DNA of 64,000 bases from Chloroflexota bacterium (GCA_016215025.1 JACRMI010000182.1:2864-66863), one strand, 5' to 3'. Counted from the stretch's first letter, positions 3,488-61,095 are shown. Numbers and translations are program-made. Notes: a model not told the origin generated them from the letters alone.

Positions 3488-4186
3488 TTATGTGTTTAGA
3501 TGTCCAACCGGAATCAGATACAACGGCGCATGATCGGTTGGCAGCGCAAGCGTTTGCTTCACCTTGTCATCTTCAAACGCGCCGATGGGAACCGCGCCAA
3601 GTTTCAGCGCAACCGCTTGAAGCAAAATATTCTGCGCCGCGTGTCCCGCTTCCAGATGCACATAGCGTGGCGTGCGTTCTTCGCCGTACTTGATCGAGGT
3701 ACGTGCATATACACTTGCAATCGCGATAACGGCTGCCGCATTTTTCACGGCATCTTGTTGCAGCGCGACCGACCACAAGGCAGAACGCAAATCCCCCTGA
3801 GCATGCACACTCAAGCGATGACCTTGCGGCTCGTAATGATAAACATTGTCGCGTGTCACCGCGTAAAGCTCCAAGGGATATAATCCGCCGGCCGATGGCG
3901 CGGTCCGCTGTCCCACCGGACTGGTTGCGCCTTGCGCCGCCCAAAGCAATTGTCCCAATTCTTCCATCGATAACGATTTGTTCGCAAACTCGCGAACCGA
4001 ACGTCGCCGCGCGAGTGTCTCTTCGAGCGACACCGTTCCGCTGAGATGTGGCGATGGCAACGTGATCGATTGCGATTCGGTTATCATCGTCGCAATCGGC
4101 TGCACACTGGGCTGTCGCGCGCAACCCATGAGCCAGCCCATTCCAATTCCACAACTTGCTAGAAATTCGCGTCGAGAAAGATTCAT
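3488..4186 (-). CDS. SagB/ThcOx-like nitroreductase-family flavoprotein with Tat and lipoprotein signal
   Basis: RRSVREF, LGQLLWAAQG, RTAPSAGGLYPLE, LEAGHAAQN; N-terminus SRREFL...LMGC. Start moved to the ATG at 4186, after RBS taggag. Confidence 0.85.
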   Translation of the reverse strand: MNLSRREFLASCGIGMGWLMGCARQPSVQPIATMITESQSITLPSPHLSGTVSLEETLARRRSVREFANKSLSMEELGQLLWAAQGATSPVGQRTAPSAGGLYPLELYAVTRDNVYHYEPQGHRLSVHAQGDLRSALWSVALQQDAVKNAAAVIAIASVYARTSIKYGEERTPRYVHLEAGHAAQNILLQAVALKLGAVPIGAFEDDKVKQTLALPTDHAPLYLIPVGHLNT

Positions 4187-4240
4187 AGGCGGCGCTCCTA
4201 CCATGTGCCAAGTGACGTGACAAGTGTCATGTCATTTCTT

Positions 4241-4274
4241 TTATCCGCGTTCATCCGCGTCTGTCCGCGTCCAA
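4241..4274. repeat. Half copy of the tccgcgt palindromic repeat family
   Basis: tatccgcgttcatccgcgtctgtccgcgtccaa matches one arm of the element inside mvk (60653-60731). Confidence 0.75.
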
Positions 4275-4322: not shown

Positions 4323-5318
4323 CTAAATATCCGTCCAGGCGCTGTCTTCCCAGAACGCAAACAAATCGCTGATCGATTGACACGCATAGTTCCGATAGAT
4401 CGCTTCGCCGAAAACAGACGCGACGGAGAGTATTTCCAACTTGGGATGTCGTTTTTCCGGCGGAGTATACACCGTATCGGTCGTCACGATTTGCGTGATC
4501 TGTGGAATTGTGGCTAGTTTTTCCAAGCCGTTTTTGACGAATACCCCGTGAGTGCATGCCACCCAAATATCCTCAATACCTTGATCGATCAAAATTCCAC
4601 TCAGTTCGAGCACCGAGCCGCCTGTCGAAATTTCGTCGTCGAAGATCAGCGCGCGCTTATAGCCCTTGACTTGCTGTCCAACGATACTGTCGATTTTGAC
4701 TTGTGTATCCGAGATGCGTGTTTTATTTCCTGCGGTCACGGGTACACCCAGGTCGCGCGCAAACCGCGCCGCAGAATTGGCGTGTCCCAAATCGGGCGCG
4801 ACGACAATCGTGCCGGACAAATCGCGCTCTTGAAAATAGCGTTTGAAGACCGGACGACTCGTGAGCGGATCCGTCGGCACGCTGAAAAAGCCATGCACTT
4901 GGGGCGAATGCAACACCATCGTCATCACGTGCGTCGCGCCTGAGGCTTGCAACAAATCGGCAACCAAGCGCGCGGTGATCGAAATGCGCGGCGCGTCTTT
5001 TTTGTCGGAGCGAGCGAATGAAAAATAAGGAATGATCGCGTGAATTTCCTTTGCTGCCGCGCCGCGCGCAATATCAAGCATCATTAATAATTCGACCAAG
5101 TGATCGTTCACGGGCGGCGCAAGTGATTGAACGATGTAGACGCGCCGCGAACGCACGCTCGCGCCAAGTTGAATCGACAAGCAATCGTTGCCAAAGCGTT
5201 TGATGCCGGTGGGCACTAACGGCACGTCCAGATGACCGGCAATCGCTTGCGCGAGTTGCGGATTAGAGCTTCCGCTGAAGAAACGGACTTCGTTTGGATC
5301 CATCATCTGCATAGTCAT
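4323..5318 (-). CDS. prs: Ribose-phosphate pyrophosphokinase
   Basis: FSGSSNPQLA, IPYFSFARSDKK, VVAPDLG, PRPP-binding IFDDEISTGGS, ACTHG. Confidence 0.93.
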   Translation of the reverse strand: MTMQMMDPNEVRFFSGSSNPQLAQAIAGHLDVPLVPTGIKRFGNDCLSIQLGASVRSRRVYIVQSLAPPVNDHLVELLMMLDIARGAAAKEIHAIIPYFSFARSDKKDAPRISITARLVADLLQASGATHVMTMVLHSPQVHGFFSVPTDPLTSRPVFKRYFQERDLSGTIVVAPDLGHANSAARFARDLGVPVTAGNKTRISDTQVKIDSIVGQQVKGYKRALIFDDEISTGGSVLELSGILIDQGIEDIWVACTHGVFVKNGLEKLATIPQITQIVTTDTVYTPPEKRHPKLEILSVASVFGEAIYRNYACQSISDLFAFWEDSAWTDI

Positions 5319-59951: not shown

Positions 59952-60040
59952 GTTGGGATTGCATTCTTCTCTAATTCCTGGATCACAATAGGTGGGACTG
60001 TTCAAAGGAACTCGCACGCTGGCAATAACTTGCAATGCAA

Positions 60041-60077
60041 TCGCCCGACCAATTGCAATTGGTCGGGCGATCTTTTT
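60041..60077. terminator. Hairpin terminator between converging units
   Basis: tcgcccgaccaattgcaattggtcgggcga followed by tcttttt. Confidence 0.65.
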
Positions 60078-60093
60078 CTACCTTTCGCTTACG

Positions 60094-61095
60094 CTACGAA
60101 ATCGTCGTAACTATCACGCGTTTTGCGCCAGCTTTCAGCAACGCACGCTGAACCCTATCTTGGGTAACCCCATCTACCAACGCAATCACGTTGCCACCGC
60201 GTCCCCCACCCGAAAGTTTTGCGCCGCGTGCGCCCGCCGTCGTCGCTGCCAGCACCAGCCGTTCAATATCCGACGACGAGACGCCAATCTGCCTCAGCAA
60301 AATCTGATTGTTGCGCATGAGCGCACCTAAACGATTCACCTCGCCGTTTTCAATTGCCTTTCGTGCCTTTCGCGTTATTTCGGCTATTTCGTCAAACAGC
60401 GATTCATACGTGGCACGGTTCGCTTCCCACGCCCGCCGAACATCGCCCACCGCGATTTTGGTCGGCGCGGCGATGCCGGTATCGGCAATCGCAATCGTGA
60501 AGGGCTGCGCCACGCGAAACGATTCGATCGGATTTCCTTTTGTGAAATAGACCGGTTGCTCGAACGCAATCACCGTGTTGTCGATTCCGCTTGGCGTGCC
60601 ATGATGCAGTTTCTCAACTTCGTATGCCAAATCTGAAATGTCCTGCGATGATAATTGGACGCGGAGTACCGCGGATGAACGCGGATTAAAATCATTTTTC
60701 CGTGTTTGTCCGCGTTTGTCTGCGTCCAATTCACTCAAAAATTTGCCTAGCGCACGCGCGATGGCCACCGAGACCGCTGCGCCGCTCCCTAACCCACCAC
60801 CAATCGGCAAGGTTGAATGGATACGCACAGAGAAATTTTCCGGCTCGACGCTGAGACGCGCGCACGTTAGCCGAATGATCGTCGCAATGGGATCGCCTTC
60901 GCGCGCTTCGCTCAAAGCGTACGTGCGCTTTAGATCGATGGCATCGATGACCACTTTGCCATCGTCGCGCGCTTGTACCGTCGCTTCGGCATGAACTTGG
61001 AATACTGGGACGGCAATCGCAGGACGATCATACACGACGGCATGTTCGCCAAAGAGAATTATTTTGCCTGGTGCGGTTGCATTGGTCAAGCGCAA
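60094..61095 (-). CDS. mvk: Mevalonate kinase (with in-frame palindromic insertion)
   Basis: APGKIILFGEHAVVY, P.GGGLGSGAA, HGTPSGID, GAKLSGGGRGG. Confidence 0.93.
   Translation of the reverse strand: MRLTNATAPGKIILFGEHAVVYDRPAIAVPVFQVHAEATVQARDDGKVVIDAIDLKRTYALSEAREGDPIATIIRLTCARLSVEPENFSVRIHSTLPIGGGLGSGAAVSVAIARALGKFLSELDADKRGQTRKNDFNPRSSAVLRVQLSSQDISDLAYEVEKLHHGTPSGIDNTVIAFEQPVYFTKGNPIESFRVAQPFTIAIADTGIAAPTKIAVGDVRRAWEANRATYESLFDEIAEITRKARKAIENGEVNRLGALMRNNQILLRQIGVSSSDIERLVLAATTAGARGAKLSGGGRGGNVIALVDGVTQDRVQRALLKAGAKRVIVTTIS
60653..60731. repeat. 79-bp palindromic element inserted in frame in mvk
   Basis: Perfect 10-bp terminal inverted repeat aattggacgc/gcgtccaatt enclosing three cgcgga-like and three tccgcg-like units. 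Confidence 0.85.

Follow-up and report, generated by a model that had tools for sequence, protein, structure and literature searches.

A dispersed hairpin repeat lying in frame within a Chloroflexota mevalonate kinase gene, and its relation to GxxExxY cassettes

Palindromic repeats that colonise proteins in frame are known chiefly from Rickettsia, and the phenomenon has been treated as a peculiarity of reduced genomes of intracellular bacteria. Here we describe a 79-nt hairpin repeat that lies in frame within the mevalonate kinase gene (mvk) of a Chloroflexota bacterium, in a stretch of 64,000 nt (the window; contig C134:2864-66863 of assembly GCA_016215025.1) from a metagenome-assembled genome (MAG), and compare it with the described systems that it most resembles.

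Rickettsia palindromic elements (RPEs), for which PMC10969869 cites Ogata et al. 2000 and 2002, are described in the excerpted text of that source as dispersed palindromic repeats found in frame in unrelated genes, where they provide extra peptides at positions compatible with the protein fold. [quoted passage not shown] Repetitive extragenic palindromes (REPs) are given, in an excerpt of PMC3733652, as 20–40 bp long with GTAG or CGTC heads. The 23S rRNA intervening sequence (IVS) of Coxiella has a 28-bp terminal stem, tandem GACAGAT heptamers and an S23p open reading frame (ORF) in its loop; it is excised by RNase III, and an old proposal holds such elements to be mobile (PMC4990558, in excerpt). 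A literature search outside subscription journals found nothing on such repeats in Anaerolineae.

The 79-nt element and its host gene

The element (Table 1) ends in a perfect 10-nt terminal inverted repeat, AATTGGACGC at 60653-60662 and GCGTCCAATT at 60722-60731, as a preliminary description of the window had stated. Inward of these termini the inverted repeat continues, giving two arms of 33 nt with 79% complementarity and 13 nt between them. Its RNA fold reaches -37.8 kcal/mol (z = -6.2), a value as low as which was found in none of 200 dinucleotide shuffles. Across the element the mvk frame reads LDADKRGQTRKNDFNPRSSAVLRVQL with no stop, leaving the 333-aa ORF unbroken, and its position in the translation is between the GLGSGAA and HHGTPSG motifs of the kinase; on both points the preliminary description was right. 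There it codes for a loop, with the helix after the phosphate-binding GLGSGAA on one side and the helix leading to HGTPSG on the other.

The insert stands out when the protein is compared with its orthologues. An Mvk match was found in 39 of the 41 genomes searched (own genome included), and 27 relatives with full-length orthologues were counted, after exclusion of L038, which has the C-terminal half only, and L045, in which the N-terminus is cut. At the element, 21 of these 27 have a gap of exactly 24 residues. The excluded L045, in which 284 residues align to 308 query positions, appears to be without the insert. In the S. aureus enzyme (PDB ID: 2x7i) a single residue, between chain residues 120 and 122, stands where the query runs from residue 121 to 147, and in 78 of the 120 best public homologues (representatives of 90%-identity clusters, our own protein included) 28 residues separate GSGAAVSVA from HHGTPSG, the spacing being 35–77 in the remaining 42.

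An insert of this type is also present, at the corresponding position, in P0002, the public homologue nearest to our protein (334 aa, 78% identity), with 18 of 26 insert positions identical to ours and 240 of 305 outside it. Because so diverged a protein shares the insert, the insertion is old and has long been carried in frame. The preliminary description had regarded the process as ongoing; the insertion itself is real, but this shared insert, together with copies of the repeat that are at most 92% alike, shows that it is not recent. Per-run Logan contigs from three runs (X2, 3406 nt; X3, 926 nt; X4, 424 nt) span the element within mvk with 0 differences; the three runs belong to one study, and X4 is not flagged as a possible source of the assembly. 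A contig from another study (X5, ~95% identical, with 9 differences in 168 nt) stops 14 nt into the element, at the same junction. The assembly artefact that had been named beforehand as a possible refutation was not found, since contigs of three runs bridge the site.

The host assembly is a MAG of 7.74 Mb in 194 contigs (96% complete, 7.7% contamination); the window has a G+C content of 52.8%, and the relatives recovered with the kinase search are titled Anaerolineae or Chloroflexota MAGs. The listed start of mvk is TTG, the real start being uncertain by a few codons. Its product, the single Mvk match in the assembly, matches Pfam GHMP_kinases_N (PF00288) and GHMP_kinases_C (PF08544) and scores 246.6 bits against the NCBIfam equivalog TIGR00549 (cut-off 163.05), residues 8–306 aligning to profile positions 1–276. 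All residues invariant in 28 orthologues are retained in the insert-bearing protein, G103, S104, A106, A107 and H165–G170 being invariant across the 28 sequences. An AlphaFold model, from an input alignment of 28 sequences, has a mean predicted local distance difference test score (pLDDT) of 93.2; its best Foldseek match is the M. mazei mevalonate kinase (PDB ID: 6mde_A; E = 1.2e-25; template modelling score 0.81 for the query and 0.89 for the target), and the best solved-structure matches of the protein are mevalonate kinases. Kinase motifs and predicted fold are intact despite the insert.

Confidence in the model falls only at the insert, with pLDDT values of 83, 64 and 75 in the 10-residue blocks 121–130, 131–140 and 141–150, and 88–99 elsewhere. 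In the predicted secondary structure the helix from residue 104 reaches 131, coil runs over 132–149 and the next helix begins at 150. From the low pLDDT, this secondary structure and the gap in solved structures, we infer that the insert would form an exposed surface loop.

Positions 60040-60080 of the window, just past the 3′ end of mvk, hold a perfect palindrome rich in G+C with a T run behind it. Judged by eye, it resembles an intrinsic terminator read on the + strand.

The repeat family and its gene-bearing relatives

A BLAST search of the own genome with the 79-mer gave 62 matches, both strands counted, with other copies reaching E = 1.5e-17; other full-length copies are 77–86% identical to the mvk element. 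In an alignment of 25 copies the ends TTGGAC and GTCCAA are conserved, each arm has three ACGCGGA-type units, and the A+T loop varies. A profile built from these 25 copies finds ~99 places in the 7.74-Mb assembly, 59 of at least 60 nt and 54 of 65–105 nt. A profile match also confirms the related arm that the preliminary description had placed near 4241-4274, now delimited slightly further out (Table 1), which falls between ORFs 3488..4204 and 4323..5318, both on the minus strand. Among 46 copies of 65–85 nt the median nearest-neighbour identity is 0.83 and the maximum 0.92, the best for the mvk copy being 0.83. In the flanks of 45 copies, GGAC is preceded by (A/T)AT(T) and GTCC is followed by (A/T)ATT. 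Against Rfam the element matched a plant microRNA hairpin model and nothing else, and that below threshold (23 bits, the gathering score being 95). The possibility that the family is unusually translatable was rejected, with a mean of 2.4 open frames out of 6 compared to 3.1 in random windows of the own genome and 1.7 in shuffles.

Pairs of solo arms 450–560 nt apart enclose small ORFs, and these match PF13366 (PDDEXK_3) and TIGR04256, ‘GxxExxY protein’. There are ten GxxExxY matches in the own genome, three of which (C109:17419, C44:16286 and C169:87681) lie between arms of the mvk-element family. Other arms are found at other genes, for instance CACAGAG arms at C1:4408, a third type on C42 and a fourth around a tandem pair on C178. 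To score arms, the two 220-nt flanks of a gene were compared for their best ungapped inverted repeat, and arms were called at a score of at least 13. By this measure arms are present at 25 of 29 best-per-genome GxxExxY genes of relatives (24 of the 29 scoring above all 30 shuffles), at 16 of 20 further genes from G012, G009 and G019, at 5 of 10 own-genome genes, and, in other families and classes of the phylum, at 20 of 29 genes. The total is 66 of 88 GxxExxY genes, compared to 1 of 150 random control ORFs of similar size, for which the threshold was at least 12. The arms consistently consist of about three tandem units, the core of which varies among genes; G012 has at least six arm motifs, and thus several cassette families in one genome.

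In a tree of 38 GxxExxY proteins the arm core takes 17 changes, against a shuffled mean of 27.2 (0 of 200 shuffles as low), and the six CGCGGA-armed genes, from five genomes and two families, make up one side of a branch within a clade of 99% support. This shows that the GxxExxY gene and its arms travel as a unit; it does not imply co-evolution, as relatedness alone can cluster the labels. Across 34 proteins we find GxxExxY, Asp and Glu-x-Lys (ExK) as conserved motifs, in agreement with a predicted PD-(D/E)XK nuclease. The function of the PDDEXK_3 family is given as ‘Unknown’ in an excerpt of PMC3424549. The link of hairpin arms to these genes is new, the literature outside subscription journals having yielded no connection of PDDEXK_3 or GxxExxY to flanking hairpin arms. 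Our searches found no parent with the same ends and a recognised transposase; the genes that the mvk-family ends bracket are GxxExxY genes, and PDDEXK_3 is not known to have transposase activity.

At one locus the spacer between a conserved rpiB-like gene and the next gene was compared in the own genome (G000) and 22 relatives (L187–L216). It holds a full GxxExxY cassette in the own genome (588 nt) and in G001 (784 nt), is nearly empty in four relatives (7–24 nt) and measures 53–151 nt in fifteen; two more are longer, with other content. Ten of the fifteen mid-length spacers fold at z <= -3.2 with at most 1 in 100 shuffles as low, and three are not significant. The significant hairpins are gene-less tandem units that start at the stop codon, and their core differs in nearly every genus. 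Genes of PF05635 (‘23S rRNA intervening sequence protein’, a four-helix-bundle family) give eleven matches at ten loci of the own genome (Table 1), and at seven of the ten they are flanked by inverted arrays of tandem units with a score of at least 15, yet with other cores. The mvk insert looks like a gene-less member of this wider intervening-sequence-type class, landed in a protein gene.

Protein loops as probable recurrent insertion sites

The loop of Mvk carries other inserts in 6 of the 27 relatives. A hairpin of a different family, with the core CACAGAG, occupies it in three g9 genomes and two g6 genomes, and a short 9-residue hairpin is found there in one g8 genome. Both families are multi-copy in these genomes: a CACAGAG query has 13 matches in G017, 26 in G020, 9 in G008, 1 in G005 and 9 in G000, and the mvk element has 12 in G017, 5 in G020, 3 in G008, 14 in G005 and 3 in G007. 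When the 42 longer public homologues are sorted by peptide motif, using crude patterns under which three composite rows are counted twice, 27 are of CACAGAG type, 5 of our own type, 5 of a third type and 8 other; most of these loops are repeat-like peptides, of at least three types. Some of the inserts are nested composites, for instance those of P0034 and P0066. Loops of similar length in orthologues, which the preliminary description would have held against an insertion if unrelated to the repeat, therefore do occur in form (6 of 27 relatives, 42 of 120 homologues), but the loops are themselves repeat-derived.

In g9 and g6 the insert junction immediately follows the Lys-Phe-Phe codons; it lies two codons further on in our gene and three further on in g8. 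On an Mvk tree built with the insert columns removed, the presence of an insert takes 3 changes, and the insert-bearing relatives are confined to one family-level clade of 17 rows. As the source of this recurrence we lean towards independent insertions beside AAATTTTT, an A/T run made up of the Lys-Phe-Phe codons, with selection for permissive loops acting as a filter.

A third repeat family, whose peptides end in ...LLAMT or contain AKQSP or LRFARND, is also seen in frame in these same permissive loops, in several proteins and genomes. Its carriers are Mvk of P0003, P0023, P0034, P0066 and P0113, the methyltransferases L239 and L252, and the membrane proteins L259 and L267.

The repeat family of the mvk element is dispersed and mostly intergenic in the own genome, but 7 of its 54 full-length copies are in frame in genes, with Pfam or ORF support (Table 1), and gaps in relatives were checked for three of the genes other than mvk. 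Long ORFs spanning copies on C8, C46 and C93 were rejected as shadow frames, the copies there being intergenic, and copies near C75, C50, C137, C63 and C108 lie upstream of the Pfam-matched part, so that they were not scored as genic. Because the family is not specially translatable, the in-frame state of every surviving genic copy is the remainder to be expected from selection. The loop of 6-phosphogluconolactonase carries inserts in at least 6 of 25 relatives, of our own family in G005, G015, G014 and G022 and of other families in G009 and G001. Loops of the methyltransferase and the membrane protein in relatives also carry varied repeat-like peptides. The mvk insert is part of a phylum-wide pattern of loop colonisation.

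Several details of the lactonase genes are recorded here as observations in their own right. The insert-bearing genes of G015 (L119) and G022 (L133) have internal stops (1 TAG, 2 TGA), and some colonised lactonase copies may be decaying. Smaller palindromes are nested within the hairpin of the own lactonase insert (L106) and of that in G014 (L128), and the loop of the latter holds a second, unrelated long palindromic element, making a 60-residue in-frame insert.

Table 1. Location of the mvk element, its parts, and related features in the window and the own genome (plain numbers are window positions; C numbers are contigs)
Feature	Location	Strand	Basis or remark
mvk, mevalonate kinase, 333 aa (333-codon ORF)	60094..61095	-	ORF, Pfam, TIGR00549
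Gene-less hairpin repeat in mvk, ~residues 122-147; core subrepeat ACGCGGA, termini TTGGAC/GTCCAA	60653..60731	.	Inverted repeat, family profile; genic copy, in frame
Left arm: terminal 10-mer, then ~three tandem 10-11-nt subrepeats	60653..60685	.	Inverted repeat I1, direct repeat D1 (20-nt spacing)
A+T-rich hairpin loop, 13 nt	60686..60698	.	Position holding the GxxExxY gene in gene-bearing relatives
Right arm	60699..60731	.	Inverted copy of left arm
Solo arm of the same family, intergenic	4238..4274 (C134:7101-7137)	.	nhmmer profile match, E 2.3e-5
Genic copy: 6-phosphogluconolactonase (L106)	C176:103505-103602		Within Glucosamine_iso match
Genic copy: S-adenosylmethionine (SAM) methyltransferase			Within Methyltransf_11 match
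Genic copies: two PMT_2 glycosyltransferases			Pfam match interrupted at element
Genic copy: Wzy_C membrane protein			In frame
Genic copy: 532-residue membrane protein			In frame
GxxExxY cassette L150	C109:17333-17902		mvk-insert arm family
GxxExxY cassette L151	C44:16193-16731		mvk-insert arm family
GxxExxY cassette L149	C169:87528-88220		mvk-insert arm family
GxxExxY cassette L152	C1:4326-4802		CACAGAG arms
GxxExxY cassette L148	C42:10664-11008		Third arm type
PF05635 loci	C138:36367, C186:111105, C128:12481, C194:3549, C158:3503, C123:23660, C176:6198, C88:3542

Competing explanations and comparison with known systems

The 79 bases in mvk are an old in-frame insertion, a non-autonomous, gene-less copy of a dispersed Anaerolineae hairpin repeat. 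We put at roughly 85% the probability that they are a tolerated selfish passenger, retained solely thanks to a net length that is a multiple of three, an open frame and a permissive loop, in a family with no special coding capacity. It seems somewhat more plausible than otherwise that cassettes consisting of a GxxExxY/PDDEXK_3 nuclease gene between two arms gave rise to the short copies or have their ends in common with them. As to the mode of movement, which we infer, we regard it as a tentative suggestion that the GxxExxY nuclease moves gene-less copies in trans, by analogy with what RAYT transposases (REP-associated tyrosine transposases) are thought to do for REPINs, the hairpins formed by REPs. 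Similarly speculative is a broader form of the idea, in which GxxExxY proteins would be the partner genes of an IVS-like hairpin superfamily, each recognising clade-specific 10-nt subrepeats, with the nuclease mobilising in trans. Gene-less copies mobilised in this way would seed intergenic sites and permissive protein loops across Chloroflexota and, if true, this would steadily supply housekeeping enzymes, mevalonate kinase and 6-phosphogluconolactonase among them, with new loop segments of 20–30 residues.

A number of points weigh against this account or narrow it. The in-gene classification covers the 54 full-length copies (65–105 nt) and leaves out the other 45 places, and gene context was assigned from ORFs and Pfam, with no gene caller. 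That the element is read as an extra peptide of Mvk is a prediction from the open frame. Near-identical pairs of copies are absent, the maximum being 0.92, so there is no direct sign of recent movement, and no contig of the four runs (X2–X5), from which rare variants are dropped in assembly, skips the element as an empty-site allele would. The end sequence AATT is its own reverse complement, which makes a target-site duplication indistinguishable from a longer inverted repeat; no such duplication is therefore definable. Arms are lacking at 22 of the 88 GxxExxY genes, and PF05635 genes occupy hairpins of the same build without any nuclease, so that GxxExxY may be carried along as cargo and not be the mobilising enzyme. 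The approximately unbiased (AU) test does not reject a tree in which all seven insert-bearing Mvk rows form a single clade (p = 0.118). Finally, HMG-CoA (hydroxymethylglutaryl-CoA) reductase (PF00368), present in 17 of 20 relatives, was not found in the 96%-complete own assembly, and for this reason an intact mevalonate pathway is not demonstrated.

The AU result is one of several observations that would suit a single ancient insertion in the loop of the family ancestor, which was afterwards overwritten where it stood, either through gene conversion from the hairpin family active at the time or through nested insertion with decay. The insert-bearing relatives all fall in the one 17-row family-level clade, our own insert type is common to the 78%-identical homologue, nested elements are known in these hairpins (the lactonases of G014 and the own genome, and Mvk of P0034 and P0066), and in two genome families the rpiB–deoC spacer has hairpins of many motif types at a single position, directly behind the stop codon. 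We nevertheless consider such overwriting unlikely: insert boundaries vary by 2–3 codons among genera, the best tree needs 3 changes of insert presence, no known mechanism switches all six subrepeats in concert, and the flanks have no shared homology to guide conversion. Less probable still is that the hairpin or the peptide has been retained for a benefit to the host, for example as an RNase III or stability site tuning the mvk mRNA or as a regulatory loop. The stem is stable (-37.8 kcal/mol) and has stayed in frame over 22% protein divergence, and solved eukaryote-type kinases align to the protein over the site in a single block of equal length (PDB ID: 1kvk, residues 127–356 to query 86–318), which suggests that function is compatible with a long loop there. 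However, identity is lower inside the insert (18/26) than outside (240/305), 13 of the 17 rows of the clade are without this insert type, the same repeat family lies in unrelated genes and mostly between genes, and its copies have fewer open frames (2.4/6) than random windows (3.1).

The missing HMG-CoA reductase would fit an mvk inactivated by the insertion, that is, a young pseudogene. We hold this to be very improbable, as the 333-codon frame is open with the invariant residues of 28 orthologues kept, the diverged homologue has the same insert in an open frame, 42 of 120 homologues have inserts at this loop, and neither DXR nor IspH of the alternative isoprenoid pathway was found in the own assembly (96% complete). 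The last argument, that the mevalonate route is the sole one and mvk consequently functional, is suggestive only, being incomplete as the assembly itself is incomplete. An assembly or binning error that misjoined the repeat into mvk is hardly credible: the MAG has 7.7% contamination and word depth rises 10- to 50-fold over the element, as many contigs share it, but contigs X2, X3 and X4 cross both junctions without a difference, X5 agrees in the junction that it reaches, the element leaves the reading frame intact, and an independent public protein has the same insert. An old in-frame insertion of the repeat is thus the reading that we retain.

The outcome familiar from Rickettsia is met here in at least seven genes of a Chloroflexota genome that is large and of environmental origin, and it recurs at the same loops across genera. 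It represents a general route by which proteins could gain loop segments, and a natural map of the sites at which enzymes tolerate insertion. The GxxExxY link provides a first testable role for a widespread family of unassigned function and connects these repeats with 23S rRNA intervening sequences, which have long lacked an explanation. Additionally, repeat-derived peptides inflate the number of ‘novel’ segments among proteins predicted from metagenomes.

Compared with RPEs, the mvk element is alike in being dispersed (99 places) and in frame in several unrelated genes (7/54). It differs in length (79 bp, against ~150 bp for RPEs in the excerpt of PMC10969869), in arms made of tandem 10–11-nt subrepeats, in the existence of gene-bearing GxxExxY versions, and in its host, since RPEs belong to obligate intracellular Alphaproteobacteria and this genome is a 7.7-Mb Chloroflexota one from environmental metagenome runs. 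The preliminary description proposed an RPE-like gain of peptide in frame; the outcome stands, at ~24 residues, whereas the element is probably not of the Rickettsia families and belongs to the GxxExxY-linked hairpin class. Set against RPEs by description, it would work as they do, and we do not claim it as a member of their family. Its terminal inverted repeats (33-nt arms), small size (79 nt in all) and lack of any coding capacity of its own are features shared with MITEs. Like the MITEs described in excerpted sources (intragenic ERIC, or enterobacterial repetitive intergenic consensus, elements, Coxiella QMITE1 and those of Anabaena PCC 7120), it is small, has terminal inverted repeats and no transposase, and belongs to a mostly intergenic family with occasional in-frame fusions. 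It is unlike them in that our searches turned up no parental insertion sequence encoding a recognised transposase, the candidate partner being of PD-(D/E)XK type.

The REPIN-RAYT system, as the excerpted literature presents it, shares with this one its many gene-less hairpins, few copies of a gene between the same repeats, and long persistence in a lineage. Here the ends are TTGGAC/GTCCAA and the unit is 79 nt, which sets it apart from REPs; several cassette families coexist in one genome; and the flanked gene is PDDEXK_3 (TIGR04256/PF13366) rather than a tyrosine (HUH) transposase, RAYT genes not having been searched for. The 23S rRNA intervening sequences differ in lying in 23S rRNA helices, whereas the host gene here codes for a protein, so that the hairpin would be translated and not cut out; the loop gene here is GxxExxY, not S23p, and the mvk copy is without a loop gene. 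In build, however, the two agree, terminal inverted repeats forming a stem with short tandem repeats in it, and full-size members carrying a small ORF in the loop; both also lie in an essential gene, which stays functional in the intervening sequences and probably does so in mvk.

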